A stretch of DNA of 64,000 nucleotides from Tepidiformaceae bacterium (GCA_965243075.1 OZ251525.1:2144348-2208347); one strand, 5' to 3'; positions 1,000 through 22,938 are shown, counted from the stretch's first letter. The notes: generated by a model not told the origin, from the letters alone. Translations and numbers: made by a program.

Positions 1000-2917
1000 C
1001 CTTCCGCCGATTGCGGCGTCGCGCATCGATCTCCACGGCGTTGGGGTCGGCGATGGGATGCGCGAGCCTGATGGCCAGCACGCCATCGGCGGGCGGCACG
1101 AGCAGTTCGAAGGCGGCCTCCCCGCTCGCGGGAACCGTCCCCGACGGATGCGCGATCTCCTTCAGGCGCAGCCAGCGCGGGCCGAGCGGCTGCTCGCAGG
1201 TGGCATCCGAGCCGGAGGGCACGCGCACGCGCACGCCAACCATCTCCGGAAGCCCCTCGCCCTCGGGCATGCGCCAGACGACGCGCAGGGTGTCGAACTC
1301 GCCACGCCGGTTGCGTTCCGGCCGCACCGACGCCTTCACGCGGAACACCGTCCCCGCACTCGGCGAGGGGCCGCCGGTTCCGCCCCGCCGACGCGCTTTC
1401 CCCTCGTCCCGCTCGGGATGGTCCGCATCGGGGTCCGACTCCACCCTGGTTCCCGGCTCCTCGCCTTCGGGGCCCGGCGGGGGAGGCGGGGGCGGGGGCG
1501 GTTTGGGTTTCGCCTTGCGCAGCCCCACGACGAAGAAGTCGTCCGGTGTGAAGACGTTGCCGCGCTCGCGCTCGCCCGCAGCCTCGCGCAGCTGGTCGCC
1601 GATGACGCCCAGCAGCTCGCGCAGGCGCTTCCACCGGGAATCGCCCCCCCCCCCCTTGACAATAATGCGTTCACGATCCAGGCCGAGGTGCTCCGGGCCT
1701 TCGGCGTCGCGCACGAGCTCGTACAGTTCGCCCCGCTCGACCAGCACGACCGCGTCGAAGGGCCGGGAACCGCCAAAGTCGTTCACGCGCAGATGGGGCG
1801 CTTCGTTCGTGATCCACATGCCGTCGCGGTAGAGCTGGACGCGCGAGTCGTAGCCTTCGTTCTCCGTGCGCGGGCGGATGCGGATCGTGACGCCCTCGAC
1901 GCCGCTCGCGGACAGCTCGCGCCCGCTGTCGAAGCACTGCCAGGCGCGCCAGACCTGCTGGCCGGGGACGAGCGCGCCCCCACGACGGACACGCTGATCC
2001 CTGATGGAAACATGGCCCAGGATTCCCTCCAGCGCGCCACGGTCCACGACCGATTCCTCGCCGTCAGCGTCGCGCACGCGCACGACCATGCCATCCAGCG
2101 CGATGGCGGCCAGGAAGTGGGTGGCGGCCACGCGCCGGAGCGACCTGACAGCCTTCGCGGGATCGTCGCGGAAGTCGTTGAAGCCGGCGATGCAGACGAC
2201 GCTACCGGTGTCTTCGATGCGCGCCATCTCGTCCGCCAGCAGGGGCGGCGCGCGATCGGGGTACTTGTCGCCCCGCGCGAAGAGGCTCTGCTGTCCGGGG
2301 CGCAGCAGGTAGCCGTTGCCGTCGATACCCGTGTCGGGGGAATCGGGGGAACGGTGGGAGGCGAGCACGGCGTGACCGCTGGCGGCATCGTGCGGCGCTC
2401 CATTCGCGCGCGAACGGCCAGCGTAGAGCACGTAGCGCAGGTCGGAAGCGGCGAAGGCGGTGAGGTGGCCGACGCCGGTCGTGCCGCCGCCCGTCGACTT
2501 GTCCGTGTTGCCTTCGGTGAGCACGCGGTCAAGGCCCCCGGCGTCAAGGCCGACGCCGTTGTCGCGACAGAAGAGGAGGCGCACGCGCCCGCGTTCGAGC
2601 ACGCCGTTGATGCCCTCGATGGCGCGTTTCTCGCCCGCCCCGGGCGCGGAAGCGCGTTCGTCGCACACCGCCGTGAAGGCCTTCCGATAGGCGTCGATGC
2701 CGGGCAGGTCGGCCAGCGGGCGCTCGTCGATGGTGAAGCAGACCTCGGCGCGCTCGCGTTCGGCCTCGCGCGCGGCGTCGAGGCAATTCTGCAGGAGCTC
2801 GCGCACGATGGGCTCGGGCTTGCCGTCCCATTTGGACATGGCCAGCGAGGAGAAGCCCTGCGGCGATCCCGTTGCGGGGAAGATGAGGTCGGCGTCCATC
2901 TCAGTCCGTGCAGTCAC
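983..2917 (-). CDS. GHKL (Bergerat-fold, Hsp90/MutL/MORC-like) ATPase with a long uncharacterised C-terminal region
   Basis: N-terminal motifs are ELLQNCLDA (N box), CRDNGVGLD (G1) and GGTTGVGHLTAF (G2). There is a KPKPPPPPPPPPGP linker. The start is GTG 2917 (17-nt overlap with the upstream gene) or ATG 2899 (2 nt after the upstream stop). Confidence 0.75.
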   Translation of the reverse strand: MTARTEMDADLIFPATGSPQGFSSLAMSKWDGKPEPIVRELLQNCLDAAREAERERAEVCFTIDERPLADLPGIDAYRKAFTAVCDERASAPGAGEKRAIEGINGVLERGRVRLLFCRDNGVGLDAGGLDRVLTEGNTDKSTGGGTTGVGHLTAFAASDLRYVLYAGRSRANGAPHDAASGHAVLASHRSPDSPDTGIDGNGYLLRPGQQSLFARGDKYPDRAPPLLADEMARIEDTGSVVCIAGFNDFRDDPAKAVRSLRRVAATHFLAAIALDGMVVRVRDADGEESVVDRGALEGILGHVSIRDQRVRRGGALVPGQQVWRAWQCFDSGRELSASGVEGVTIRIRPRTENEGYDSRVQLYRDGMWITNEAPHLRVNDFGGSRPFDAVVLVERGELYELVRDAEGPEHLGLDRERIIVKGGGGDSRWKRLRELLGVIGDQLREAAGERERGNVFTPDDFFVVGLRKAKPKPPPPPPPPPGPEGEEPGTRVESDPDADHPERDEGKARRRGGTGGPSPSAGTVFRVKASVRPERNRRGEFDTLRVVWRMPEGEGLPEMVGVRVRVPSGSDATCEQPLGPRWLRLKEIAHPSGTVPASGEAAFELLVPPADGVLAIRLAHPIADPNAVEIDARRRNRRKDGDDD

Positions 2918-4151
2918 AGGATATCTCGCCGGTGGCGTAGCGGTTGCGCCCGGGGACGTCGCCCGTGGCGATGCGGTCGAAGCTGGGGCCGCTCAGGCCG
3001 AGGAAGCCGAAGCCGCCGCCGCTCACCGATTCGCGGCTGTAGCGGCGCTCCATGACGGCCCACCATTCGGCGTCGGAGGGAGCGCCGGGCACGCGCGCGG
3101 GGTCGGGCCGCGCGGCCAGCCGCGTGAGCGCGTTCGTGCCCTTCATGAAGCAGAACACGCAGTTGCCCGCGTTCTCGGGGATGTCGAGGTCGAAGTCGCG
3201 TTCGCGCCAGAAGGTCTCGACGGCGGCCTTGTCGAAGCCCCACTCCTCAAGGGGGAAGTAGGGGCGCTCGCCGGGGGGCTGGGTGCGGATGGAGCAGGCG
3301 CGCCCGCCCGCGCCCTCGGCGAGGAAGGAGCGCATGGCGATGCGGTCGATGCGCCTCGGCTCGTCGGCGCGCAGGCCGAGCAGGGCCACATAGCCGGCGG
3401 CGTCCGGTCCCCACAGGGGCGCGGGGCCGGGCGGGCCCGGCGGGCGCGGCGGCGGGGGCGCGTCGGTGTAGTCGCGCCAGCGCTGCGCTGCGCGGGAGGG
3501 AGGCCGCGCGGTCATGGCGGCGGCGCGGCGCAGGTAGGCGCCTTCCTCCTGGACGCCGCCGCGACGACGGTGAGCCTCCAGCGCCTGCTCCGGCCCGACG
3601 AAGGAGCGGTCCGCGTGGTGGCCGGCGTGACGCGGCCCCTCGCCCGTGCCGAACCATTCGGCGAGCAGGTCGTGGGCGGGGTAGAGCTTGAGCTTGGCGG
3701 TGCAGCTGCGCGTGTGGGGGTTGGGCAGCATCCCGTTCCAGGAGAGCATCTCCTCAAAGGCCTCGCCGCGGGAGCGGTAGCCGAGCGGGTCGTCCTCGAC
3801 GGGGTCGGCGCGCACCAGCCGGTAGGAGGCCTGGCGCACGTACATGCCACGCGAGGCGTCCTCGACGGTGCAGAACTCGTACCAGAGGACGGGCAGGCCG
3901 AAGTCGCGTTCGAGGCGGCGCTTGCATTCGCGGGCGAAGGCGTAGGTGCCGGGGTGTTCGGCGGTGGTGTTGGCGAAGAGGACGACGTCGCCGCGTTCGG
4001 GGCGCAGCAGGCCGGCTTCGGCGAGCAGGAAGGTCATGGCCGCCGAGGAGCGTCCGCCGGAGAACCTGACGACACGGGGAAGGGCCTCGTGCTCCCGATC
4101 ACGCCAGGCGATGCGCTTCATGCGCCGGTTCGGCCCGATGGGAGCGCGCAT
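2901..4151 (-). CDS. PP-loop ATP pyrophosphatase, PAPS-reductase/DndC/IbrA-like adenine-nucleotide alpha-hydrolase
   Basis: VRFSGGRSS is a variant of the SGGxDS PP-loop. RSCTAKLKL and GNCVFCFMKG motifs are typical of PAPS-reductase-family proteins. There is an internal Pro-rich insert, PPPPRPPGPPGPAP. This is the first gene of the operon. Confidence 0.75.
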   Translation of the reverse strand: MRAPIGPNRRMKRIAWRDREHEALPRVVRFSGGRSSAAMTFLLAEAGLLRPERGDVVLFANTTAEHPGTYAFARECKRRLERDFGLPVLWYEFCTVEDASRGMYVRQASYRLVRADPVEDDPLGYRSRGEAFEEMLSWNGMLPNPHTRSCTAKLKLYPAHDLLAEWFGTGEGPRHAGHHADRSFVGPEQALEAHRRRGGVQEEGAYLRRAAAMTARPPSRAAQRWRDYTDAPPPPRPPGPPGPAPLWGPDAAGYVALLGLRADEPRRIDRIAMRSFLAEGAGGRACSIRTQPPGERPYFPLEEWGFDKAAVETFWRERDFDLDIPENAGNCVFCFMKGTNALTRLAARPDPARVPGAPSDAEWWAVMERRYSRESVSGGGFGFLGLSGPSFDRIATGDVPGRNRYATGEISCDCTD

Positions 4152-4168: not shown

Positions 4169-4210
4169 GGCGTCGGGCGCGCGTCGCGCCATTCGGGGCG
4201 CGGCATGGCC

Positions 4211-4216
4211 TATCAT
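4211..4216 (+). promoter_or_regulatory. putative -10 box TATCAT for Panacea-toxin pair 1
   Basis: TATCAT is followed by GGAGG 7 nt before ATG 4241. The same architecture is repeated at 5248 (CATACT) and 58277 (TATCAT) in front of the other Panacea genes. Confidence 0.4.
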
Positions 4217-4240
4217 GGACGCACGCCCGGAGGTTCCGCC

Positions 4241-4795
4241 ATGCGCTTCGTGTTCGACGAACGCCGCGCCGCCCAAGCCGCCGCGCGCCTGCTCGACCGG
4301 CACGGCGGCACGATGCCCTGGCTCAAGCTCGTCAAGCTGCTCTACCTCGCCGACCGCGTGGCCCTCGTCGAGGGCGGCCGTCCGATCACGGGCGACCGCT
4401 TCGTCTGCGTGCGCCACGGCCCCGCCCTCGCCCGCGTGCTCGACCTGATCAAGGACGACTGCCCCGCCGGGGACTCCGTCTGGCACGGCTACGTCGCGCG
4501 CAAGCGCTTCGACGCCTGCCTCGTCGGCGACACCGAATCGGAACGATTGTCGGACTTCGACCGCGACGTGCTCGACGGCATTTCCGAAACCCATGGCTGC
4601 CTGAAGGAATGGGACGTGGTCGCCCGTACGCACGCCTTGCCGGAATGGAAGGATCCCGGCGATACCATCATTCCCATCGAACCCGAGGACGTCCTGCGCT
4701 ATTCCGGCTACTCGGACGAGGAAGTCGAGTCGGTCGTGGATGACATCGGCGCCTTTTACTCGCTCCACCTCCTGCTGACCACGCCAGCCAAGTGA
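4241..4795 (+). CDS. Panacea (DUF4065, SocA-like) domain antitoxin-type protein, copy 1
   Basis: MRFVFDERRAAQAAARLL...WLKLVKLLYLADRVALVEGGRPITGDRFVCVRHGPAL matches the DUF4065/Panacea pattern (KLLYxaD...G.pitG..f....GPv). A GGAGG SD is present. The stop overlaps the next gene start (GTGA at 4792..4795). Confidence 0.8.
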   Translation: MRFVFDERRAAQAAARLLDRHGGTMPWLKLVKLLYLADRVALVEGGRPITGDRFVCVRHGPALARVLDLIKDDCPAGDSVWHGYVARKRFDACLVGDTESERLSDFDRDVLDGISETHGCLKEWDVVARTHALPEWKDPGDTIIPIEPEDVLRYSGYSDEEVESVVDDIGAFYSLHLLLTTPAK

Positions 4796-5226
4796 CGGAC
4801 CAACGCGACTTCCGCATCAGCCCGGGCGATACGTTCTTCAACCTGCTGGACCCGATCCTGAACCTGCCGAAGCCGCACCTCTGGATCGTGCTCAACGATC
4901 CCGCCGGGAGCGGGCGGGCGGCGCTGGCGAACATCACAACGCATAGCGTGGAAACCCGCCACCGGTGCAGCGCACAGTGCCTGATCGTGCGCCACGGCGA
5001 GCACCCCTTCGTGGAAGAAGGGCATGATTCGTGCGTGCGCTACGCGGAATTCCTCTATCCGCTGGCGACGATCACGCGCGCGGCGGAGCATCCCCATACC
5101 GAGCGTCGCGAGCCGCTCAACCCCGAACTGCTTGCCCGCATCCAGCTCGGCATCTTCGATGCGCCTCTCGCGCCCGACGACGTGAAGGACGCGGTACGCG
5201 CGACGCTCGGCCAAGGCGCGCCGTAG
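4792..5226 (+). CDS. putative toxin partner of Panacea antitoxin (family not recognised), copy 1
   Basis: Translationally coupled (GTGA) downstream of the Panacea gene. Ordinary composition. It is a paralog of 5859..6251, sharing HLWI, GEHP and the ELLARIQLGI...GQGAP C-terminus. Confidence 0.6.
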   Translation: MTDQRDFRISPGDTFFNLLDPILNLPKPHLWIVLNDPAGSGRAALANITTHSVETRHRCSAQCLIVRHGEHPFVEEGHDSCVRYAEFLYPLATITRAAEHPHTERREPLNPELLARIQLGIFDAPLAPDDVKDAVRATLGQGAP

Positions 5227-5278
5227 CGCTCCGGCGCGCGCTTGCGCCATACTGGACGCACGCACCGGAGGTTCCGCC

Positions 5279-5878
5279 ATGCGCTTCGTGTTCGACGAAC
5301 GCCGCGCCGCCCAAGCCGCCGCGCGCCTGCTCGACCGGCACGGCGGCACGATGCCCTGGCTCAAGCTCGTCAAGCTGCTCTACCTCGCCGACCGCGCGGC
5401 CCTCGTCGAGGGCGGCTGGCCGATTACGGGCGACCGCTTCGTCTGCGTGCGCCACGGCCCCGCCCTCGGCCGCGTGCTCGAGCTGATCAAGGACGACTGC
5501 CCCGCCGGGGACTCCATCTGGCACGGCTACGTCGCGCGCAAGCGCTTCGACGCCTGCCACGCTGGCAACACCGACGACGGGTGGCTGTCGGAGCACAACA
5601 GGGGCATTCTCGACGGCGTTTTCGAGACCTACGGCTGCCTGAAGGAATGGGACGTGGTCGCCCGTACGCACGCCTTGCCGGAATGGCAAGACCCCGGCGA
5701 TACCATCATTCCCATCGAACCCGAGGATGTCCTGCGCTATGCCGGCTACTCCGAGGAGGCCATTGGATACGTCGCGGAGCAGGCCGAAGCGTCCTACAGT
5801 CTGCACACGACGCTGGAGCGCATTGGCAGGGAGAGGAGGCAGAAGCTTGAGCACGCCCATGTCGCTGCGGCCCGGTGA
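5279..5878 (+). CDS. Panacea (DUF4065) domain antitoxin-type protein, copy 2
   Basis: Near-identical N-terminal ~165 aa to copy 1, with a different C-terminal tail (…SYSLHTTLERIGRERRQKLEHAHVAAAR). Confidence 0.8.
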   Translation: MRFVFDERRAAQAAARLLDRHGGTMPWLKLVKLLYLADRAALVEGGWPITGDRFVCVRHGPALGRVLELIKDDCPAGDSIWHGYVARKRFDACHAGNTDDGWLSEHNRGILDGVFETYGCLKEWDVVARTHALPEWQDPGDTIIPIEPEDVLRYAGYSEEAIGYVAEQAEASYSLHTTLERIGRERRQKLEHAHVAAAR

Positions 5879-6251
5879 TACCTTCTGGGGCATCGACAGA
5901 CAGCACCACCTCTGGATCGCGCTGACCGTTCCCACACCGGATGGCAGCGTTACCGTGGCCAATTTCACGAGCCACCATCCTTCCCGGAAGGCATCCTGCG
6001 GCGAGCACTGCACGGTCGTGAACCCCGGGGAACATCCCTATCCCAAACGTCCCTCCTGCATCTTCCATGAAGGCATTCGGGTCGAAACCCAGCAGGACAT
6101 CCTGGGAGGCATTGAGCGTCCGTTCCGGAGAGGCGATCCCCTCTCCCCCGAGCTGCTGGCCCGCATCCAGCTCGGCATCATCGACTCCCCCGATACGCCC
6201 CCGGCCATCAAGAACGCCATCCGCGCGGCGCTCGGTCAGGGCGCGCCGTAG
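5859..6251 (+). CDS. putative toxin partner of Panacea antitoxin, copy 2
   Basis: ORF 5727..6251 trimmed to ATG 5859 (MSLRPGDTFWG...), overlapping the Panacea 3' end by 20 nt. Homologous to 4792..5226. Confidence 0.6.
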   Translation: MSLRPGDTFWGIDRQHHLWIALTVPTPDGSVTVANFTSHHPSRKASCGEHCTVVNPGEHPYPKRPSCIFHEGIRVETQQDILGGIERPFRRGDPLSPELLARIQLGIIDSPDTPPAIKNAIRAALGQGAP

Positions 6252-7443: not shown

Positions 7444-8826
7444 ATGGGCGGCGGCGACCCGGCCTCCCCGCTTCGCGCCCTCCCCGGCGTCGAAACCGTG
7501 CTCGCCGGGCTGCGCGGCGGCGGGCATCCGCACGCGCTCGCGCTGGAGGCGGCGCGCATGGCCATTGAGCGCGCCCGCGAGGCCGTGCGCGCCGGCGAAC
7601 CCGCGCCCCCGACGGTGGCCATCGCGGCGGAGGCGGAGGCGATCCTGCGCGGGCTCGCGCGGCCCTCGCTGGGGCGCGTGGTGAACGCCACGGGCGTCAT
7701 CCTGCAGACGAACCTGGGGCGCGCCCCCCTCGGCGAGCGCGCCATCGCGGCCATGGCCGAGGCCGCGCGCGGCTACTCCAACCTCGAATTCGACCTGGCC
7801 GGGGGAACGCGCGGCTCGCGCCACGAGCACGTGCGCGACCTCATCCGCCGCACGACGGGCGCGGGGGACGGCCTCGCCGTGAACAACAACGCCGCCGCCC
7901 TGCTGATGGCGCTGCGGGTGTTCGCGCGCGGGCGCGAGGTGATCGTCTCGCGCGGCGAGGCGGTGGAGATCGGCGGGCGCTTCCGCATCCCCGACGTGCT
8001 GCGCGAAAGCGGCGCGCGGCTGGTCGAGGTGGGCACGACGAACCGCACCTACGCCGCCGACTACGCCGAGGCGCTGGGCGACGAGACCGCCGCCATCCTG
8101 CGCGTGCACCGCTCCAACTTCGAGGTGACGGGCTTCACGGCGCGGCCCGAGGCGTCCGAGCTGGCGGCGCTGGCGCACGCGCACGGCGCGCTCCTGCTCG
8201 ACGACCTCGGCAGCGGCTGCCTCGTCGAAACCACGGACTACGGCATCCCCCACGAGCCCACCGTGCGCGAAAGCCTGCGCGCGGGCGCAGACCTCGTGCT
8301 GTTCAGCGGGGACAAGCTGCTGGGCGGGCCGCAGTGCGGCGTCATCGCCGGGCGGGAGGCGCTGGTGGACGAGCTGCGGCGGCATCCGCTGGCGCGCGCC
8401 CTGCGCGTGGACAAGCTCACCATCGCCGCCCTCAACGCCACGCTCGCCGCCTACCTCGCGGGCGCGGAACGCGAGGAAATCCCCGTCTGGCGCATGCTGG
8501 CGCTGGACGAGCCGCAACTGCGCCCGCGGGCGGAGGCGTGGGCGCGGGCGGCGGGCGAACGCGGGCGCGTGATCGCATCGCGCTCCGTGGTCGGCGGAGG
8601 CGCGGCGCCAGGCGCGGGACGGCCCAGCTGGTGCGCGGCCCTGCATCCCGAGGGCGGCGCGGAGCGGCTGACGCGCGCCCTGCGCGAGGCCGGCCCGCCC
8701 ATCGTCGCGCGCATGGAGAACGGCGAGACGCTGCTCGACCCGCGCACCGTGGACGAGCGCGACGACGCGCACGTGGCCGCCGCCATCGCCGCCCTCACCG
8801 CGCCCGCCACGCACGGCGGCCCGTGA
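7444..8826 (+). CDS. selA: L-seryl-tRNA(Sec) selenium transferase
   Basis: GVILQTNLGRAPL, VSRGEAVEIGGRFRIPDV, VGTTNRTY, RVHRSNF and FSGDKLLGGPQCGVIAG (PLP Lys) match SelA. An alternative in-frame ATG lies at 7423. Confidence 0.85.
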   Translation: MGGGDPASPLRALPGVETVLAGLRGGGHPHALALEAARMAIERAREAVRAGEPAPPTVAIAAEAEAILRGLARPSLGRVVNATGVILQTNLGRAPLGERAIAAMAEAARGYSNLEFDLAGGTRGSRHEHVRDLIRRTTGAGDGLAVNNNAAALLMALRVFARGREVIVSRGEAVEIGGRFRIPDVLRESGARLVEVGTTNRTYAADYAEALGDETAAILRVHRSNFEVTGFTARPEASELAALAHAHGALLLDDLGSGCLVETTDYGIPHEPTVRESLRAGADLVLFSGDKLLGGPQCGVIAGREALVDELRRHPLARALRVDKLTIAALNATLAAYLAGAEREEIPVWRMLALDEPQLRPRAEAWARAAGERGRVIASRSVVGGGAAPGAGRPSWCAALHPEGGAERLTRALREAGPPIVARMENGETLLDPRTVDERDDAHVAAAIAALTAPATHGGP

Positions 8827-8870
8827 GCGGCGGCGTGGTAGTATCGCGGCACTCAAGCGAGGAGCGGAAC

Positions 8871-9242
8871 ATGGAGCAGGAACACTGGCAGCCCGCCCGC
8901 CTCATTCCCGTGTCGGGCATTCGGGGCGACGACGAGCAGGAGCGCCGTGCAACGTCCGCGCTTCTGGCGGTGCTGACCGCGGTTCACGAATTCGAGCGCG
9001 CCGTCCTCAAGCCGCTGGGAGCGCCCTCGGGGAAACTGTCCGCGTTCTGCGAAGTTCCCTTTGAACTGGCGGACGGTCGCAATGTCCGCGTGGATGGCGT
9101 ACTCCAGGCGGTTCGCGGGAAGACGACGGGGTTGAAGGCATGGTCGCCGCCAGCCCCACGCCTTCCCGAGGCCGACGAGAGTGTGGAACCGGAACAGCCG
9201 GAACCCCAGTCCCCGCCGCCCGCCGAGCCCGCGTCGTCCTAG
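8871..9242 (+). pseudogene. likely 5' remnant of a conserved hypothetical gene
   Basis: MEQEHWQPARLIPVSGIRGDDEQERRATSALLAVLTAVHEFERAVLKPLGAP...VDGVLQAVRGKTTG resembles the N-terminus of a larger conserved actinobacterial-type protein from my memory. After about 85 aa it turns into a Pro-rich tail. A GAGGAG SD precedes the ATG. Confidence 0.4.
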
Positions 9243-9349
9243 ACCAAGCACGCCCCTCACGGCGTGGCGGGATATGGGCGTGGGGCGCGGGATGTTGACA
9301 GCATGATCGCGACGGCTCCAATCTGGTTGTGCGGAAAGGAGCGGGCGCG

Positions 9350-9661
9350 ATGGAAGCCGCACTGCTCCTCACGTCGATGCTTCTCCCCTGGACCGGGTTC
9401 ATCGCGGGCGTCCTGATCGGGCGCTGGTGGGTCATTCCGCTCACCGCAGCGGCATGGGTCGCGGTCGTCGTGGCCACTCACGGCGAGGGCGTTACTCCGT
9501 CCCTGCTGGGGTTTGGGCTCTTCATGGGCGGCAGCACCGCGGTGGGCGTGGCGCTGCACTGGCTGCTCTTCAAGCCCGAGGCGGTGATGGCGCGGGCGCG
9601 CGCGGGCGGCGGACGGCTGCGGAGCTGGGTGCGCGCCGCCCTCGCCACGCGGCGGGGCTAG
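9350..9661 (+). CDS. small hydrophobic (membrane) protein
   Basis: MEAALLLTSMLLPWTGFIAGVLIGRWWVIPLTAAAWVAVVV... contains 2-3 predicted TM segments. A GGAG lies upstream of ATG 9350. Confidence 0.4.
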   Translation: MEAALLLTSMLLPWTGFIAGVLIGRWWVIPLTAAAWVAVVVATHGEGVTPSLLGFGLFMGGSTAVGVALHWLLFKPEAVMARARAGGGRLRSWVRAALATRRG

Positions 9662-13401: not shown

Positions 13402-13471
13402 GGCGGCGCGCCTATAATCGCGGCGTGTCCGCTGGCGGCGGCGCGCCTATAATCGCGGCGTGTCCGCTGGC
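13402..13471 (+). repeat. perfect 35-bp tandem duplication containing the TATAAT -10 box and the polA GTG start
   Basis: GGCGGCGCGCCTATAATCGCGGCGTGTCCGCTGGC occurs twice back to back. TATAAT is at 13413..13418 and 13448..13453. GTGTCCGCTGG is at 13425 and 13460. Confidence 0.9.
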
Positions 13472-16204
13472 GGCGCCGCGCGGCGCCTCGTCATCCTCGA
13501 TTCGCACGGCATCCTCTACCGCGCCTTCTTCGCGCTGGGGTCCGCGCCCAACCCCATGATGACCAGCCGCGGCGAACTCACCTACGCCACCTACGGCTAC
13601 GCCGAGTCGCTGCTGCGCGTGTACGACCAGCTCCGGCCCACGCACCTGTGCGCGGCCTGGGACGCGGGCGGCAAGACCTTCCGCCACGAGGCGCGCGCGG
13701 ACTACAAGGCCACGCGCCGCGAGACGCCGGAGGAGCTGCCGCCGCAGATGGAGCGCGTGCGCGAGCTGCTCGACGCCTTCGCCATCCCCGTCCACGAAGC
13801 GCCCGGCTTCGAGGCCGACGACGTGGCCGGCACCATCGCCGCGCGTACCGCCGCCGACGGCATCGAGACCTGGATCGTGACGCTGGACACCGATTTCGTG
13901 CAGCTCATCCGCCCCAACCTCAGCCTCTTCATGTTCCGCCCCTACCAGCGCGACACGGTCATGTACGACATGGCGGCGGCGAGCGAGCGCTGGGGCTTCA
14001 GCCCGCACCACATGACCGATTTCAAGGCGCTGCGCGGCGATTCCAGCGACAACATCGCCGGCATCAAGGGCATCGGCGACAAGACCGCCGCCAACCTCAT
14101 CCGCCAGTTCGGCCCCATCGAGGAGCTGTTCGCGCGGCTCGACGAGGTGGCGTCGAAGTCGGTGCGCGCGAAGCTGGAGGGCCAGCGCGAGGACGCGCTG
14201 GAGAACAAGCGCCTCATCACCATCCGCACGGACGCGCCCTGCGACTTCGACCTCGCCGCCTGCGAGGCGCGCGCCTACGACCGCGAGCGCGTGGTCGCCC
14301 TCTTCCGCGAGCTGGAGTTCCGCAGCCTCATCGACCGCCTGCCCGAACCGGCGGACGGCGACGCCGCGTCCCCCGCCGTCGCCGAGCCGCCCCCCGCGGG
14401 CGACTACGCCACCGTCACGGACGAGCGCGGGCTGCGCGCGCTGGCGGAAACGCTGCGCGCGTCGGACGGATTCGCCGTCAGCGCGCTGTCCACGGCGGGC
14501 GACGGGGCGCATCCGCTGCTGCTGGGGCTGGCCTTCGCCGACGCCCCCGGACGCGCCTGGTACGTGCCCCTCGGCCATGCGCCGCGGCTCGACGACGGCG
14601 ACGCCGGACAGGCGCCGCTGGCCGCCGTGCGCGAGACGCTGGGCCCGCTGCTGGCCGACCCCGCGCTGCCGAAGACGGCCTACGGCGCGAAGTACCTGCT
14701 GCACCAGTTCGCGCGCGCGGGCATGGCGCTCGACGGCGTCGTGGCCGAGACCAGCCTCATGGCCTTCCTGCTGGGCGAGACCTCGCAGACGCTGGCCAGC
14801 CTCGCCACCGAGCGGCTGGGCGTGGAGCTGCGCCCCGTCACGGCGCTCACGGGCACGGGGCGCAAGGCCGTCCCCCTCGCGCAGGTGGACCCCGAAGCCG
14901 CGGGCGAGCTGGCCTGCCAGCAGGCCGACTTCCTGCTGCGCCTGCGCCCGATGCTGGAGGAGCAGCTGCGCGAGCGCGGCCAGTGGGCGCTCTACGAGGA
15001 GCTGGAGCTGCCCCTCGTGCCCGTGCTGGCGGACATGGAGGCGGCGGGCGTGGCCATCGACACCGCCGTGCTGCGCGACATCTCCACCTCGCTCGCGGGC
15101 GAAATCGACATCGCCGAGCGCGCCGTGTACGAGCACGCCGGGCGCGAGTTCAACATCGGCAGCCCCCAGCAGCTGAGCGACGTCCTCTTCAAGGAGCTGG
15201 GGCTGCCGCCCACGCGCCGCATGAAGCAGGGCCACAGCACCGACCAGCGCGCCCTCGAGGGGCTGCGCGAGGCCCACCCCGTCGTCGAGGCCATCTTCGC
15301 CTGGCGCCAGCTGACCAAGCTCAAGTCCACCTACCTCGACGCCCTGCCCGGGGCCGTCTCCCCCGACGACGGGCGCATCCACACCGACTTCCAGCAGAAC
15401 GTGGCCGCCACGGGGCGGCTCAGCAGCGTCAACCCCAACCTGCAGAACATCCCCGTGCGCACCGAGCAGGGCCGCGACATCCGCCGCGCCTTCGTCGCCC
15501 AGGGCCACGACGACGCCCGCTACGTGGCCGCCGACTACTCCCAGATCGAGCTGCGCGTGCTCGCCCACCTCAGCGGCGACCGCGGCCTCATCGACGCCTT
15601 CCTCGCCGACGCCGACATCCACCAGGCCACCGCCGCCAGCGTCTACGGCGTGGCCCCCGACGCCGTCACGCGCCAGATGCGGGACACGGCCAAGATGGTC
15701 AACTTCGGCATCGCCTACGGCATGGGCGCCTTCGGCCTGAGCGAGCGCACGGGCCTCACGCGCGAGGAGGCGGGCGCCTTCATCGACGCCTACTACGCCA
15801 ACTTCCCCGGCATCAAGACCTGGCAGGACGAGGTGCTCGCCTCCACGCGCGAACGCGGCTACGCCGAAACGCTCCACGGGCGGCGGCGCTACCTGCCCGC
15901 CATCCACAGCCGCAACTTCCAGGCGCGCGCCGCCGCCGAGCGCGAGGCCGTCAACATGCCCGTACAGGGCACGGCGGCGGACATCATCAAGGTGGCCATG
16001 ATCCGAATCGCCGCCGCCGCCCGCGAGCGCGAGCTGCGCAGCCGCATGATCCTGCAGGTGCACGACGAGCTCATCTTCGAGGGCCCGGCGGACGAGGCGG
16101 ACGAGGTGGCCTCGCTGCTGGCGGAGGTGATGCCCGCGAGCCTGGAGCTGGCGGTCCCGCTGAAGGTGGACCTGAAGCGCGGCCGCAACTGGGCCGAGCT
16201 GTAG
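13460..16204 (+). CDS. polA: DNA polymerase I
   Basis: 5'-nuclease N-terminus (LVILDSHGILYRAFFA), and polymerase motifs DYSQIELRVLAHLS, RDTAKMVNFGIAYG and LQVHDELIFE. The GTG start lies only 6 nt after TATAAT, so the mRNA is probably leaderless. Confidence 0.95.
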   Translation: MSAGGAARRLVILDSHGILYRAFFALGSAPNPMMTSRGELTYATYGYAESLLRVYDQLRPTHLCAAWDAGGKTFRHEARADYKATRRETPEELPPQMERVRELLDAFAIPVHEAPGFEADDVAGTIAARTAADGIETWIVTLDTDFVQLIRPNLSLFMFRPYQRDTVMYDMAAASERWGFSPHHMTDFKALRGDSSDNIAGIKGIGDKTAANLIRQFGPIEELFARLDEVASKSVRAKLEGQREDALENKRLITIRTDAPCDFDLAACEARAYDRERVVALFRELEFRSLIDRLPEPADGDAASPAVAEPPPAGDYATVTDERGLRALAETLRASDGFAVSALSTAGDGAHPLLLGLAFADAPGRAWYVPLGHAPRLDDGDAGQAPLAAVRETLGPLLADPALPKTAYGAKYLLHQFARAGMALDGVVAETSLMAFLLGETSQTLASLATERLGVELRPVTALTGTGRKAVPLAQVDPEAAGELACQQADFLLRLRPMLEEQLRERGQWALYEELELPLVPVLADMEAAGVAIDTAVLRDISTSLAGEIDIAERAVYEHAGREFNIGSPQQLSDVLFKELGLPPTRRMKQGHSTDQRALEGLREAHPVVEAIFAWRQLTKLKSTYLDALPGAVSPDDGRIHTDFQQNVAATGRLSSVNPNLQNIPVRTEQGRDIRRAFVAQGHDDARYVAADYSQIELRVLAHLSGDRGLIDAFLADADIHQATAASVYGVAPDAVTRQMRDTAKMVNFGIAYGMGAFGLSERTGLTREEAGAFIDAYYANFPGIKTWQDEVLASTRERGYAETLHGRRRYLPAIHSRNFQARAAAEREAVNMPVQGTAADIIKVAMIRIAAAARERELRSRMILQVHDELIFEGPADEADEVASLLAEVMPASLELAVPLKVDLKRGRNWAEL

Positions 16205-16376
16205 GGGGCAGCGCGCGCCCCGCCGCCGTCACGATCACGATCTCGTCGGCGACGGGCGCGAGGGCGTCGCGCACCCACTGCAGGAGGGGGCGTCCGCGCA
16301 GCGTGGCGGCGGCCTTGTCGGAGCCGAAGCGCGTGCTGCGTCCGCCCGCCACGATGATGCCCGCGAGCGCGCCCAT
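16205..16376 (-). pseudogene. N-terminal fragment of a MobA-like molybdenum cofactor guanylyltransferase
   Basis: MGALAGIIVAGGRSTRFGSDKAAATLRGRPLLQWVRDALAPVADEIVIV is a typical MobA N-terminus. The reading frame then runs into the polA 3' end and degenerates into Pro/Ala/Arg junk. Confidence 0.55.
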
Positions 16377-16390
16377 GCCCGCAGGGTATA

Positions 16391-16876
16391 TCAGGCGCTA
16401 CGGACGCTTGGCGCCGCAATCTCCCTCACCCGCTCAAGGTCGGCGTCGCTGAGGTCGTCGTCGGAGACGCCCGCGAAGCAGTACGGGATCTCCTCGCCGT
16501 ATTCGACGGCCTTCCATCCGGCCCCGTACGACCAGTCGGGCCCCACGCTGGCGTCCAGCCGTCCGATGACTTCATCGACGAGCGCGATTTCGGGAGCGGT
16601 GAACAGGGAAACGTCGGCGACGGCGCGCCCATCCTCGCCCAGCGCATCAAGCGCTTCGTCGAACCCAGCGGGAACGGGGCCGCGCCGATCCTTGACGTAC
16701 GAGCGGCCGGTGATGGAGCGGCCGAGCCGGTCATAGGCGGCGAAGTCGCAGCGGTACAGCACCCCGGCAAGCGCGGGCGCGTCGAACGACGGACGCTGGC
16801 GGCACGCCCCGGCGACGTACAGCATGAGTTCGCGGAGACGCGCGGAATCGTCGTGTTCTTCGGACATGGCGGGCAC
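16391..16876 (-). CDS. Panacea (DUF4065)-like domain protein, divergent copy
   Basis: LRELMLYVAG...LAGVLYRCDFAAYDRLGRSITGRSYVKDRRGPVP fits the DUF4065 pattern. Start is GTG 16876 or ATG 16867. Confidence 0.7.
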   Translation of the reverse strand: MPAMSEEHDDSARLRELMLYVAGACRQRPSFDAPALAGVLYRCDFAAYDRLGRSITGRSYVKDRRGPVPAGFDEALDALGEDGRAVADVSLFTAPEIALVDEVIGRLDASVGPDWSYGAGWKAVEYGEEIPYCFAGVSDDDLSDADLERVREIAAPSVRSA

Positions 16877-16893
16877 GGTAGCACGGCTCGCGC

Positions 16894-17058
16894 CTAGGCG
16901 GGCTGCTCACTGTCCCTCGCGGGCTGGCTGGCGGCCTTGTGCGAAGGGCGCAGCACAGCGCGGGCCAACGACTCCGGCAGGTCCGCATCCCGTGCGATGT
17001 CCTTGTCCCACTCCCACAGGTCGGCGACCTTCGGCATCGGCTTCTCTCCCCGCGACAT
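16894..17058 (-). CDS. small hydrophilic protein (54 aa) carrying a DLWEWDKDI motif
   Basis: A strong SD (AGGAGGAG) lies 6 nt upstream of ATG 17058. The product is MSRGEKPMPKVADLWEWDKDIARDADLPESLARAVLRPSHK..., and the gene sits between the MTase-HNH and Panacea genes. Confidence 0.45.
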   Translation of the reverse strand: MSRGEKPMPKVADLWEWDKDIARDADLPESLARAVLRPSHKAASQPARDSEQPA

Positions 17059-17120
17059 GGCACTCCTCCTGCTGTGTGCATCCATGTTAGGCGACGACGG
17101 CGTGCTTACGCCAGCGCTCC

Positions 17121-18800
17121 CTACCGAGGCCGCTTGTCCCACTCGCTGATCGCCCACATCCGCGCGCGCTCCAGGTGCGGGCGCTTGTCCTCGCCCGGCC
17201 ACACCAGCCCCTTCAGCGCGCGGTCATCCCGCAGCTGGATCATCGTCAGGCGGTTGCCCTTCACGCCGTTGCACTTCCGGCAGGCGATACCGAGGTTGTA
17301 GAGGTTATCGTCTCCGCCTTCCTCACCATCGTCGGGCCGCTTCGCAAACAGGTGCTCGACTTCGAGCATGTCGGGGTCGGGTTCGCCGTTGGGAAGCTTC
17401 GGCTGCCAGTTACAGCCCCAGCACAAGCAGCCGAACCGAGCCAGCAGCATCTCCTTGCATTCATCCTTCGGGATGTTGCCGTTCCAGCGCGGATCGCGAC
17501 GTTGTCTTTCGGACACCTCGGGGCCGGACAGCACCTGCTCGCGCGGCTCCACGTCGTTCGGGCCGATCACCCGCCACGGCTTGACATCCAGCCCTTCGTC
17601 CCAGTTGAGCCGGGGATTGCCAAACGCGACGGCGGTGGCCGAGGTCGTGGATGCGGTACCGCCATCAAGCAGACAGCGCAGCCCCTCGTTCTGGTAGAAG
17701 CGCCGCTTGATCATCGTGAGCGAGCGGTACGACCAGTCACAGGCGATCCACTGACGCGGTTCGTGAGCGGGCATCCATCCCTCAGCAGCGACAGCCGTGG
17801 TGGCACAGCCCGCGAAGATGTCGAGCACCACGTCGCCGGGGTTGGAAGAGGCCTCGATGATGCGCCGGTACAGGGCCAACGGCTTCTGCGTCGCGTAGCC
17901 CGTGCGCTCGCGGGCCTGGCTGTTGATGATATTGATGTCGTTCCACGTATCGTGGAGTGGCGTTCCCTGTTCATCATCGCTCCGGTCCACGATCCTGTCG
18001 TAGTCGCCGCCCGCGATCACCGCAGCGGCCTTTTCCCGATCATAGATAATCAACTGCCGCACGCCACCGGGCTTGTTGACCTGGTATCCTTTTCCAATCT
18101 TCCGGCGCTTGTCTTCAGAAAGACTATAGAGCCTGTTGAAAACGTAGTCGTCCGTCTTGGAGTAGAACAGGAGCACATCATGGTTGCGCTGAAAATGGCC
18201 CGCCGTGTTACTCCACTTGCCGTAGTGCCACACGATTTCATTGCGGAAGTTCCCCGCACCAAAGATCGCGTCCAGAAGCATCCGCAGGTGCGAATTGGCC
18301 TTATCGTCGCAGTGGACGTAGATGCTGCCCGTGTCCTTCAGCACGCGATGGCACTCCACCAGCCGCTGCGCCATGAAACAGATGTACGCCGCCATGCCAT
18401 GGCCAGCCGTGGCGATCACGGCCTCGATCACGGAGTGGATGCGCTTCGGCAGACTCCCGTCTTCCGCATTCTCGATCTCGCGGTAGAAGGCCGCATGGCT
18501 CCCCTTCTCGCTGATGTCCTTGTTCCACTCCCACAAATCGCCAACCTGCGTGTACAGGCCATACTCCGGGAACTCGTCCCTCGGCCTGCCCGTGTGGGCC
18601 ATGAACAGCTCGATCTCCTCGCCCAACTCGGCCTCGGTGATGGCGGGCTTGGGGTTGCTGCGGAGGTTCTCCATCTTGCCGAACGGGGGATCGATGGCGA
18701 TGAGGTCGATACAGGCGTCGTCAAGCGAGAGCAGGAAACGCAGGTTGTCCATAAGCGCCAGCGTGCGGTTGGGGAAGTTGGGCTCGGACGAATCGGACAC
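17121..18800 (-). CDS. beta-class amino (N6A/N4C) DNA methyltransferase fused to a C-terminal HNH nuclease domain
   Basis: Motif IV IAIDPPFG comes first, then SIYVHCDD, and motif I VLDIFAGCATTAVAA later (beta order). The C-terminus CWGCNW...LEVEHLF...NLYNLGIACRKCNGVKGN is an HNH with CxxC pairs. Two hand-counted 60-nt lines gave 47-53% G+C. Confidence 0.85.
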   Translation of the reverse strand: MSDSSEPNFPNRTLALMDNLRFLLSLDDACIDLIAIDPPFGKMENLRSNPKPAITEAELGEEIELFMAHTGRPRDEFPEYGLYTQVGDLWEWNKDISEKGSHAAFYREIENAEDGSLPKRIHSVIEAVIATAGHGMAAYICFMAQRLVECHRVLKDTGSIYVHCDDKANSHLRMLLDAIFGAGNFRNEIVWHYGKWSNTAGHFQRNHDVLLFYSKTDDYVFNRLYSLSEDKRRKIGKGYQVNKPGGVRQLIIYDREKAAAVIAGGDYDRIVDRSDDEQGTPLHDTWNDINIINSQARERTGYATQKPLALYRRIIEASSNPGDVVLDIFAGCATTAVAAEGWMPAHEPRQWIACDWSYRSLTMIKRRFYQNEGLRCLLDGGTASTTSATAVAFGNPRLNWDEGLDVKPWRVIGPNDVEPREQVLSGPEVSERQRRDPRWNGNIPKDECKEMLLARFGCLCWGCNWQPKLPNGEPDPDMLEVEHLFAKRPDDGEEGGDDNLYNLGIACRKCNGVKGNRLTMIQLRDDRALKGLVWPGEDKRPHLERARMWAISEWDKRPR

Positions 18801-18869
18801 CTAGCCGCTCCTTTCCCGTACCCTACAGGCGCGCGGCCCGCGCCGCCAGGCGGGCGCGCAACCGTCCCG

Positions 18870-19949
18870 CTACTTGGGGGCGACGGTGGCGCCGGTCTCC
18901 ACGCCGATGCCCGCCAGCAGGGCGTGGATGGCGCGCGCCTTGTCCACGATGCGGCCCGCCTCCTCGCGCACCGCCTGGCGCCCGTCGCAGAGCGCCTCCG
19001 CGGGGTTGCTGTGGATGTCGAATTCGAGGCCGTTGGCGCCCGCCGCCACGAAGCCGTAGGAGACGCGCTCGACGAGGGCGCGGTCGCCGGAGCTGTGGGA
19101 GGGGTCGGCGATGAGGGGCAGGTGGGACTTGCCGCGCACGAGCGGGATCATGGAGATGTCGGCGGCGAAGCGGGTTTCGGACTCGAAGGACTTGATGCCG
19201 CGGTAGCAGAGGATGACGTTGGGGTTGCCGGAGCCGCTGGAGCGCCCCTCGCGGTCGATGCCGGACATGATGTAGGCGGCGGCGCAGAGCCACTCGTTCA
19301 TGTCGTTGCCGAAGCCGTGCTTGAGCACGACGGGGGTGCGGATGCGGGCCAGTTCCTCCAGCAGGGGGGAGTACTGGGCGCTGCGCGCGCCGATCTGGAT
19401 GACGTCCACGCCCGCCGAGAGGAAGGCGTTGAGGTGGCGCAGGTCGATCAGTTCGGAGACGACGGGCAGGCCGGTGGCCTCCTTCATGGCGCGCACGATG
19501 TCGAGGCCACGGGCGATTTCGAGGCCGCGGTAGTCGTAGGGGCTGGTGCGGGACTTGTCGACGAAGGCGCGCAGGATGTCCACGCCCGCGTCGCGCGACA
19601 TGATGGCGGATTCGACGGCCTGTTCCTCGCTTTCGATGGCGCAGGGGCCGCCGAAGATGGTGAGGTTGCCGCCGCCCACGGGCACGCCCGCCACGTTCAC
19701 GACGGTGTCCTCGCGGTGGAAGCTGCGGCTGGCGTCCTTGTACTTCTCGGTGATGCGGATGACGCGGTCGACGCCGGGCAGTTCGGTCACGCGGCCCTCG
19801 TCCACGATTGCGGCGACGCCCTTGACCCCGATCACGATGCTCCCCGTTCCCACCAGCGTCTCGCACTGGAGGCCGTAGTCGTCGCCGATGCGCTCCATGA
19901 CGCGCTCGGCCTGTTCGTCCGTGGCCCCTTCGACCATGTGGATAATCAT
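18870..19949 (-). CDS. 3-deoxy-7-phosphoheptulonate (DAHP) synthase, type I-beta with N-terminal regulatory domain
   Basis: GGPCAIES, KSRTSPYDYRGL, QIGARSAQ, VVLKHG and IADPSHSSG motifs. Confidence 0.9.
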   Translation of the reverse strand: MIIHMVEGATDEQAERVMERIGDDYGLQCETLVGTGSIVIGVKGVAAIVDEGRVTELPGVDRVIRITEKYKDASRSFHREDTVVNVAGVPVGGGNLTIFGGPCAIESEEQAVESAIMSRDAGVDILRAFVDKSRTSPYDYRGLEIARGLDIVRAMKEATGLPVVSELIDLRHLNAFLSAGVDVIQIGARSAQYSPLLEELARIRTPVVLKHGFGNDMNEWLCAAAYIMSGIDREGRSSGSGNPNVILCYRGIKSFESETRFAADISMIPLVRGKSHLPLIADPSHSSGDRALVERVSYGFVAAGANGLEFDIHSNPAEALCDGRQAVREEAGRIVDKARAIHALLAGIGVETGATVAPK

Positions 19950-20032
19950 GTGGCGGCTACTCCGTCGGCTTGGCCAGCGATCTTGCTACGTATTCCGTCA
20001 ACGGGCCAGCGCGCCCCGCGGGGGGCGGGCGC

Positions 20033-20877
20033 TCAGAACAGCAGCTGCGTGAGGCGGCGCTGGTATTCGCGCACGAGGGCGCTTTCGAGGCCGAGCAGGT
20101 CGAACACGGCGAGCGTGGCCTTGCGCGCGGCGTCGCCGCCGAAGTGGCGGTCGAGGCGCACCGATTCGAGCAGCTCGTCGAGCGCCTCCTCGTAGCGCGC
20201 GTGGGCGGCCAGCATGACGCCCCAGCGGTAGCGGGCGCGGGGGTCGTCGGGGGCCTGGCGCGCCTCCTGTTCGAGCGCGGCGGCGTCGTGCTTGCCGGAG
20301 AACTCCTCGAGGAAGAGGTGGTGGCGCAGGGCCTTGGCGCGGCGGTTGGAACCGGCGCGCTCGATCAGCTCCTCGGCCTCCTCGCGCTCGCCGCGTTCGA
20401 GCAGGATGGCGGCCAGCCCGGCGAGGGCGTCGCCGTTGTCGGCGTCCTCGGCCAGCAGTTCGCGGTAGCGGGCCTCGGCGGCGGCGAGGTCGCCCGTGGC
20501 GGCCAGCTCGTCGGCCTCGGCGGCGGCCATCTCCGCGGGCGTGGCCGTGAGCGCGGCGAAGAAGGCGCGCACGTGCTCCTCCGGCAGGGCGCCCGTGAAC
20601 TCGCTCGCCACCTCGCCGTCGATGAACGCCTTGACCGCGGGGATGGCCTGGATGCCGTAGGTCATGGCGGTGTTCGGGTTGCGGTCGGTGTCGAGCGTGG
20701 CCAGCAGCACGTCCTCGCCGAACTCGGCGGCCACGCGCTCGATGACGGGGCTGAGCACGCGGCAGGGGCCGCACCAGTCGGCCCAGAAATCGACCACCAC
20801 GGGGCGGTTGCGCGATTCCGCGACGACGGCCTCGGCGAAGGTGGCGTCGGTCACTTCGAGGACGGGCGAGGGAGCGG

Positions 20878-20881
<4 letters not shown>
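20033..20881 (-). CDS. thioredoxin-domain protein with C-terminal TPR-like region (YbbN/CnoX-like)
   Basis: ORF 20033..22864 trimmed to ATG 20881 (ATGA overlap with the upstream stop). [18 protein letters not shown] is present, followed by a helical repeat tail. Confidence 0.85.

Positions 20882-22938
<2,057 letters not shown>

Follow-up and report, generated by a model that had tools for sequence, protein, structure and literature searches.

A solitary, mobile methyltransferase-HNH gene, most likely restriction-modification-like, beside an unrelated Panacea gene in a Tepidiformaceae bacterium

Introduction

Known Type IIG restriction-modification enzymes have an N-terminal PD-(D/E)XK nuclease, a gamma-class methylase and a C-terminal recognition domain. 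The HNH-type Type II enzymes KpnI, MnlI and Hpy99I are stand-alone nucleases, with the methylase encoded by a separate gene. Here we describe a gene whose 559-amino-acid (aa) product joins a beta-class DNA methyltransferase to an HNH nuclease domain at its C-terminus (MTase-HNH), together with its neighbors, in a 64,000-nucleotide (nt) stretch of DNA from a Tepidiformaceae bacterium. The whole stretch is called the window, and coordinates are counted from its first letter. An initial annotation of this DNA had proposed that the MTase-HNH gene, a 54-aa open reading frame (ORF) and a gene of the Panacea antitoxin family, which follow one another on one strand, form a single three-gene system. 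We read the locus, with moderate confidence, as a solitary mobile MTase-HNH cassette that lies beside an unrelated backbone Panacea gene and encodes a restriction-modification-like enzyme.

Two bodies of published work bear on such a locus. Insertion with long target duplication has been described for restriction-modification genes, with double-strand breakage proposed as its basis, and allelic substitution of the recognition domain has been reported for Type IIG genes (Furuta et al., 2010; PMC2853133). For Panacea genes, a survey of toxin-antitoxin pairs recognized a PanA-PanT pair by a gap of no more than 100 nt and conservation in at least two species, and found PanA-first to be the common arrangement (Kurata et al., 2022; PMC8832971).

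The MTase-HNH gene resembles several described systems in part. Like Type IIG or IIC enzymes of the MmeI, BpuSI and Eco57I type, it places nuclease, methylase and recognition domain in one chain encoded by a solitary gene, and like Type IIG genes it is mobile with flanking repeats and has a recognition domain that varies between alleles (PMC2853133). In contrast to them, its methylase is beta-class, its recognition domain is central and its nuclease is a C-terminal HNH domain, and it is therefore a variant architecture outside the described Type IIG and IIC families. Type III Mod proteins (EcoP15I Mod, Mbo45V Mod) likewise have a beta-class methylase whose central recognition domain is variable; unlike in Type III systems, no res helicase-nuclease gene adjoins, either here or at 71 other loci, and the nuclease is fused and HNH-type. 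The protein shares its Cys4-zinc beta-beta-alpha-metal motif with KpnI, MnlI and Hpy99I, and with IscB, Cas9 and group II intron maturases in their HNH domains, but here, in contrast to the HNH-type Type II enzymes, the HNH is the C-terminal domain of a methylase.

A methylase and an HNH nuclease in one polypeptide

The gene and its two distinctive domains are as follows.

17121–18800, minus strand: MTase-HNH gene, 559 aa, single-chain beta-class (Mod-like) methyltransferase with C-terminal HNH (PF01555, 135 bits)
17910–18227, minus strand: variable target-recognition region, aa 192–297 (column conservation, length range)
17226–17468, minus strand: HNH nuclease domain, aa 445–525 (invariant residues, profile matches)

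The PF01555 match in Pfam far exceeds its cutoff of 26.7 bits, and the succession of DPPF (aa 37–40), the variable region and FAGCATT (aa 329–335) is the beta-class motif order, so that a single ORF reads methyltransferase, recognition domain, methyltransferase, HNH. DPPF-type motif IV is associated with N6-adenine methylation, and it suggests that specificity here. An AlphaFold (AF2) model of the protein (predicted local distance difference test, pLDDT, 83.9; predicted template modeling score, pTM, 0.70) matched CcrM, M.BceJIV, EcoP15I Mod, MboIIA and RsrI in Foldseek at 1e-14 to 1e-12. The likeness to Type III Mod proteins is supported by the Foldseek matches to 4zcf and 7dsu and by PADLOC MTase_III matches down to 3e-30.

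The C-terminal region reads CWGC ... EVEH ... NLYNL ... CRKCN..K. It is recognized by the NCBIfam IscB HNH model at 5e-6 and by several PHROG HNH families, a PF01844 match is already on record for many relatives, and a profile of the C-terminal 130 residues matched, among PDB sequences, IscB (E 0.0024), a group II intron maturase (E 0.0032) and Cas9 (E 0.1). Residues C460, C463, H483, N502, C510, N511 and K514 are invariant both in an alignment of 97 relatives and in one of 26 members, as are the methylase motifs; at aa 507, the first ligand of the second zinc pair, some members have Cys and others His. Judged from these alignments, the HNH domain is canonical and zinc-bound, with its catalytic residues intact. 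The initial annotation was thus right to place modification and cleavage modules in a single polypeptide, and its own proviso, that the HNH residues might prove degenerate, does not apply given that all seven are invariant.

These residues also bear on an alternative in which the protein is in effect an epigenetic methyltransferase of the orphan kind, with an HNH that cleaves nothing and acts as a structural or DNA-binding zinc domain, and the 54-aa ORF behind it a non-functional relic of a decayed transposon. The gene is indeed solitary among housekeeping genes, and the HNH of this particular protein scores below threshold in Pfam. However, the general-base His483, the metal-binding Asn and the zinc ligands have remained invariant in 97 members that are only about 45% identical, which argues for retained catalysis, and recognition-domain swapping and carriage by mobile elements would be unusual for housekeeping orphan methylases. 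We regard this alternative as improbable.

A solitary and mobile gene family

In all, 7333 homologues were matched, of which the best 120 were mostly full-length (520–620 aa), many having both PF01555 and PF01844. A scan of one genome per species (GTDB) yielded 79 other MTase-HNH loci (L011–L089 among the numbered loci that we compared; 71 non-redundant), with up to four copies per genome, and the record titles name Dehalococcoidia, Tepidiformaceae or Chloroflexi in all but one. The full architecture was found in none of 72,556 plasmid and 50,697 phage records, where matches span only aa 88–377. Literature searches for this fusion, with REBASE outside their scope, found no paper that describes it, and the family looks uncharacterized.

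The gene keeps no regular company. At the 71 non-redundant loci, 134 ORFs on the downstream side and 124 on the upstream side were scanned with Pfam, and no family was common to more than five loci; the families reaching five were orthologous housekeeping genes. A Res-type helicase was absent from all 258 of these ORFs and from the positions adjacent to the gene in the window. Two putative PD-(D/E)XK nuclease families, DUF4058 (five loci) and Uma2 (three loci), appear repeatedly in the same flanks, and this may reflect their abundance in these genomes.

Comparison with its relatives indicates that the gene is mobile. DNA identity between the window and the closest relatives is limited to the ORF (17124–18787), at 97% for L003 and 90% for L001, L002 and L004, and in all four of these the gene lies between a Cu-ATPase gene and gcpE, with flanks unlike those of the window. 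The 3′ end of the Cu-ATPase gene is duplicated around the MTase-HNH gene, in L001 over 65–75 base pairs (bp) and in L003 over about 40 bp, and at L094 the gene is flanked by a 15–18 bp duplication of the stop region of a 3-deoxy-D-arabino-heptulosonate-7-phosphate (DAHP) synthase gene. In the published type of insertion the target duplication exceeds 30 bp and no other mobile element is involved; the duplications of L001 and L003 are of this kind, that of L094 is shorter, and the window has an imperfect repeat of about 20 bp.

In some genomes the gene travels with a transposase. One genome has four identical 3.41-kb IS1595 transposons (L074, L075, L076 and L083; 4630–8041 in each), in which a 26-bp perfect inverted repeat at each end encloses an IS1595 transposase gene (NCBIfam, 193 bits), the MTase-HNH gene and a 65-aa ORF. 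The copies have 8-bp target duplications, and those of L076 and L083 have been exchanged, which points to an inversion between these two copies. Another locus, L090, is a 3,058-bp contig that is essentially a single transposon, consisting of left inverted repeat, IS1595 transposase gene, MTase-HNH gene (567 aa), 49-aa ORF and right inverted repeat. The transposases of these five loci score 178–193 bits in NCBIfam. The elements at L074–L076, L083 and L090, with transposase, 26-bp inverted repeats, MTase-HNH gene and small ORF, therefore resemble IS1595 transposons that carry passengers.

Such behavior might be the very purpose of the nuclease. The HNH domain would then serve the gene's own mobility, making a homing-like break for insertion or allele replacement, and the methylase would only shield the host genome. 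DNA identity that is confined to the ORF at different loci, long target duplications around the gene, several copies per genome with some in tandem, and an HNH domain like that of mobile group II intron maturases are all in keeping with this idea, as is the double-strand breakage proposed for the insertion of restriction-modification genes (PMC2853133). However, a role in mobility does not exclude one in restriction, and restriction-modification genes do both. Moreover, copies occupy many unrelated sites, so that there is no single homing site, the hypervariable recognition domain fits defense or addiction rather than site-specific homing, and two elements depend on the IS1595 transposase instead. 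Mobility as the enzyme's own function appears unlikely to us.

Exchange of the recognition domain

Across the 97 aligned relatives, conservation in the recognition region drops to 0.2–0.36, and the anchor residues W191 and E298 lie as little as 74 and as much as 169 aa apart. In L005 and L001 the sequences on either side are 97% identical and the middle, which is the recognition domain, is unalignable, so this segment alone has been replaced. In many paralogues, what is shared is limited to ~490 nt at the start of the gene and ~800 nt at its end. Tandem MTase-HNH pairs with conserved 5′ and 3′ ends are present at L032 (4047–5834 and 6001–7727) and L013 (6001–7551 and ~7765–9588), and pairs of this kind could drive recognition-domain exchange by recombination.

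The inserted segment and its surroundings

The remaining features of the locus are listed here.

16895–18837: inserted segment, 1943 bp, with leader, MTase-HNH gene and 54-aa ORF (comparison with relatives, G+C)
18801–18837, minus strand: cassette leader, with -10-like TGTAGGGT, an AAGGAG ribosome-binding site and the GTG start next to it
16894–17058, minus strand: 54-aa ORF trailing the MTase-HNH gene, with ribosome-binding site AGGAGGAG upstream and one homologue
18838–18859, minus strand: left member of the imperfect direct repeat on either side of the insert, GCGCGCCCGCCTGGCGGCGCGG (comparison with the right member and with L006, whose empty site has one copy)
16885–16906, minus strand: right copy of the imperfect direct repeat, GCAGCCCGCCTAGGCGCGAGCC, which holds the stop codon of the 54-aa ORF
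18870–19949, minus strand: DAHP synthase gene, backbone flank of the insertion hot spot (PF00793 and PF18152)
16391–16876, minus strand: Panacea (PanA-like) gene, 161 aa, without partner, backbone (PF13274, 24.1 bits; orthologues)
16203–16376, minus strand: mobA remnant, codons 1–58 (PF12804 at 1.7e-14)
13460–16204, plus strand: polA, complete, 914 aa, convergent to the mobA remnant, with the junction at its stop codon read directly

The MTase-HNH gene, the 54-aa ORF, the Panacea gene and the start of mobA are all real features that lie on the minus strand where the initial annotation had placed them. The ends of the insert are given by L092, which matches the window backbone at 98.4% identity as far as 18838 and again from 16894, with different cargo in between. 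Insertion was directly after the DAHP synthase gene, at a site that is empty in L006, and the DAHP synthase gene order is common to L006, L007, L092 and L094. The claim of horizontal acquisition is borne out, both because the insert is absent or different at orthologous loci and because the ORF is 97% identical in DNA to the copy elsewhere in L003. The accompanying claim of low G+C was correct in direction, but its figures (about 47–53%) were unrepresentative: G+C is 62.3% in the MTase-HNH gene, 63.1% in the insert and 72.2% in the window, with a minimum of 55.8% in the part that encodes the recognition domain, and about 45% is reached only in the lowest 60-nt stretches.

How the insert relates to the IS1595 elements can be stated within limits. 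It differs from them in having neither transposase nor inverted repeats, and since both are missing from the window the proposal of an intact IS1595 transposon was rejected; the insert would be at most a derivative of such an element. A flanking 10-bp sequence, GGCGCG(G/A)GCC, was likewise rejected as a clean transposon target duplication, its similarity being due in part to two similar promoter-like motifs. The longer imperfect direct repeat listed above is a possible target duplication.

A motif related to that of the leader, GCGCGCCTGTGCTAnnnTG, lies upstream of the MTase-HNH genes in L003, L001 and L094, and we infer that the leader motif serves as a promoter. The combination GTGCTAnnnTG / TGTAGGGT recurs in the window at 16865–16884 and 18811–18830 as well as in L003, L001, L094, L006 and L007, either a few bases 5′ of the Panacea start codon or 5′ of MTase-HNH genes. 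Its sequence resembles an extended -10 element, in which case the Panacea transcript would be leaderless. Promoter and terminator scanning gave nothing useful, and an Rfam scan of 14000–21000 returned no match.

A resident Panacea gene that has lost its partner

The Panacea gene of the window scores 24.1 bits with PF13274, under the cutoff of 25.7, with coverage of profile positions 4–45 only. Nevertheless, phmmer relates it to proteins above the cutoff at 3e-15 to 6e-22, which is clear homology, and its initial naming as a Panacea-domain gene is sustained by this homology and not by its own Pfam score. Orthologues that are 67–93% identical occupy the same backbone position, in the order thioredoxin genes, DAHP synthase gene, variable cargo, Panacea gene, 77-aa gene, mobA, luciferase-like gene and PD-(D/E)XK gene.

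The 77-aa gene lies directly 3′ of Panacea at L007, L009, L092, L096, L097 and L098, where there is no MTase-HNH gene. Its start overlaps the Panacea stop codon (TGATG), and all its occurrences are beside these Panacea genes. A precise deletion has removed it from the window and from L094, and its ATG is now ATA. A partner with the spacing and conservation of the published pairs is therefore found at the six loci and is lacking in the window (PMC8832971). The relatives resemble PanA-PanT systems in that a small conserved partner comes after the Panacea gene at a gap of 0 nt, antitoxin first (Kurata et al., 2022; PMC8832971). They are unlike them in that the 77-aa partner has no recognized toxin domain, and the window differs further through the deletion of that partner and a Panacea score just below the Pfam cutoff. 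The 77-aa protein is possibly a RelE/ParE-like toxin, a prediction made from a poor model. On the evidence of these orthologous loci, the window Panacea is a resident backbone gene and, if the prediction holds, an orphan antitoxin left after partner loss. A 39-nt shortening of the Panacea gene was considered as a sign of decay and rejected, because in L092 and L096 short forms of 159–161 aa are found together with the 77-aa partner.

What lies upstream of Panacea varies from one relative to the next. The slot is empty in L006, holds genes for 276 and 196 aa in L007 (4414–5848), a gene for a Thr/Pro-rich protein of 865 aa (no recorded Pfam family) plus a 63-aa gene in L092 (2189–4786), and the MTase-HNH gene in the window and L094. 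In L009 and L096 it holds a gene for a trypsin-like protein (691 aa in L096, 310–2385), with no DAHP synthase gene visible upstream. From this variety of cargo, the slot between the DAHP synthase gene and Panacea behaves as an integration hot spot.

These comparisons speak largely against the three-gene proposal, according to which the MTase-HNH gene, the 54-aa ORF and Panacea would be a toxin-antitoxin-like system in which Panacea neutralizes the HNH nuclease or the small protein. The arrangement invites the idea: the three genes share a strand with gaps of only 62 nt and 17–26 nt and no predicted terminator between them, L094 repeats the order MTase-HNH, small ORF, Panacea, a different Panacea gene lies 3′ of a 98%-identical MTase-HNH gene in L003, and the Panacea genes of the window and L094 are without the 77-aa gene and thus without another obvious partner. 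However, L094 is the orthologous locus and not an independent case, its MTase-HNH gene is another allele, and the ORF in its middle position has 134 aa and no relation to the 54-aa one. The two MTase-HNH genes are 72–77% identical in DNA in patches only, with 91% identity in the left flank and the first ~120 nt, and this patchiness, together with the unrelated middle ORF, fits cassette replacement at the hot spot rather than a co-evolving system. The Panacea gene of L003 has its own 99-aa ORF downstream, the MTase-HNH genes of L001, L002, L004 and L005 have no Panacea, and at least six loci of Panacea orthologues have the 77-aa partner and no MTase-HNH. Within 6 kb of the 79 other MTase-HNH genes (71 non-redundant loci), Pfam scans and a Panacea profile search found no Panacea gene at all. 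The window Panacea also retains a promoter-like motif of its own, and the main text of the Panacea survey names no methyltransferase or HNH partners (PMC8832971).

Adjacency of Panacea to the MTase-HNH gene or the 54-aa ORF is, in short, unconserved beyond the orthologous locus. The three-gene order expected elsewhere was met only at L094, and the separate 77-aa partner found at six related loci speaks against the proposed role of Panacea as neutralizer of the MTase-HNH or the 54-aa product. We give the three-gene system very little credence and, on these comparisons, take the position of Panacea next to the MTase-HNH gene to be a chance neighborhood.

The 54-aa ORF

Among 1.84 billion representatives searched, the only homologue of the 54-aa ORF was P0181, which has 49 aa, is 65% identical, and sits in L090 between the MTase-HNH gene and the right inverted repeat of the IS1595 transposon. 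This placement inside an MTase-HNH transposon indicates that the 54-aa ORF goes with the MTase-HNH cassette and not with Panacea. The ribosome-binding site AGGAGGAG precedes the small ORF in L090 as it does in the window, a conservation that counts against the view of the ORF as a relic in the orphan-methylase alternative; that view can instead point to the single homologue, to the absence of any homologue 3′ of 71 other family genes, and to a stop codon that lies inside the flanking repeat.

A wider family of small ORFs after MTase-HNH genes was rejected, since a three-sequence profile matched only L074, which is itself a member of the profile and is similar at the level of position and motif only. 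No families were found for the 54-aa, 77-aa, 99-aa and 134-aa ORFs with Pfam, NCBIfam and PADLOC. Within the 54-aa ORF, a patch of 38 nt or 13 aa (VADLWEWDKDI; 16996–17033) matches 18510–18547 at 33 of 38 nt. The patch corresponds to a conserved N-terminal motif of the MTase-HNH family, is missing from P0181, and is possibly a gene-conversion footprint; codon bias is strong here, so that agreement in DNA and agreement in peptide do not count as two separate matches. That the ORF is the relic of a tandem second MTase-HNH gene was rejected, as the family profile gives only 5.4 bits across 16200–17200.

The mobA/polA junction and other Panacea genes of the window

The 58 codons of the mobA remnant are 100% identical to aa 1–58 of MobA in L007. 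The gene is cut after codon 58, at 16203/16204, exactly at the stop codon of polA, and the rest of mobA was not found in the window. DNA identity to L092, L094 and L096 ends at 16204, beyond which those relatives run on into an intact mobA and the luciferase-like gene. The rearrangement noticed initially at this point is supported by comparison; the junction reflects a genuine deletion or rearrangement, or else a join made during assembly.

Counting the gene at 16391–16876, the window has three Panacea genes. The other two form tandem paralogous modules.

4205–6251, plus strand: two tandem paralogous modules of Panacea and downstream partner (PF13274, 54.5 bits for each Panacea gene)
4205–4795 and 4792–5226, plus strand: module 1, Panacea of 196 aa and overlapping partner of 144 aa (no Pfam family for the partner)
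5279–5878 and 5859–6251, plus strand: module 2, Panacea of 199 aa and overlapping partner of ~130 aa (no Pfam family for the partner)

From these two intact modules, Panacea first with the partner downstream is the normal order in this genome. They are candidate PanA-PanT pairs whose putative toxins belong to no Pfam family. Beside them, a 416-aa ORF (2901–4151, minus strand) has a PP-loop-like SGGRSS motif, which suggests a 3′-phosphoadenosine-5′-phosphosulfate (PAPS) reductase or a DndC-like protein.

Proposed function and spread

Taken from its domains and its evolutionary behavior, the MTase-HNH gene is most likely a restriction-modification gene of a Type IIG-like kind, with an HNH as its nuclease. 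Methylase and nuclease would presumably share one recognition domain, which would guide both the methylation of host sites and HNH cleavage at or near unmethylated ones. Such an enzyme would be at once a defense gene and a selfish, addictive one, and this double nature would explain both its carriage by IS1595 and its insertion behavior. The family would spread and diversify by three routes: insertion 3′ of the stop codon of a resident gene, with duplication of the target; exchange of whole alleles or of recognition domains through the conserved 5′ and 3′ ends; and, in some genomes, passage on IS1595 transposons together with a small ORF. The islet in the window would then be two unrelated things that met at the hot spot between the DAHP synthase gene and Panacea, in a lineage that deleted the 77-aa gene and in which mobA, through a separate rearrangement, was truncated at codon 58 and came to adjoin the end of polA.

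Several observations weigh against this account. The case for restriction activity is drawn from the domains of the protein and from the way the family evolves, and the HNH of the window protein scores 18.7 bits with PF01844 in Pfam, under the cutoff of 21.4. The mode of arrival of the insert is uncertain, as no IS1595 DDE transposase was found in the window and the insert ends have no inverted repeats, only the imperfect direct repeat of about 20 bp. Terminator prediction found nothing between the MTase-HNH gene, the 54-aa ORF and Panacea, so that read-through co-transcription of the three is possible. Two loci that are independent of each other, the window together with L094 on one side and L003 on the other, have Panacea directly 3′ of an MTase-HNH gene, and in both the window and L094 it lacks the 77-aa partner; we attribute this double adjacency only to co-location at the hot spot and to the abundance of Panacea genes, of which the window has three. 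The toxin assignment of the 77-aa protein starts from a model with a pLDDT of 56, whose top Foldseek matches, to HigB and ParE toxins, are non-significant (E 0.2–5). Finally, the relatives compared are all metagenome assemblies.

A more general proposal, which we put forward tentatively, is that the MTase-HNH family constitutes an undescribed, self-mobile class of single-polypeptide restriction-modification enzymes, with swappable recognition cassettes, that is present in multiple copies across Dehalococcoidia and moves both by target-duplicating insertion and as an IS1595 passenger with a small ORF.

Significance

The locus is an example of a hot spot where unrelated mobile genes accumulate and can be mistaken for an operon, and also of toxin loss that would leave an orphan Panacea antitoxin. 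Should MTase-HNH prove to be a restriction-modification enzyme, the single-chain enzymes would gain an architecture that is HNH-based and beta-class, and specificity engineering could draw on the family as a large natural collection of swapped recognition domains. Barriers to gene flow in Dehalococcoidia, a class difficult to grow and to modify genetically, would then also be explained in part.

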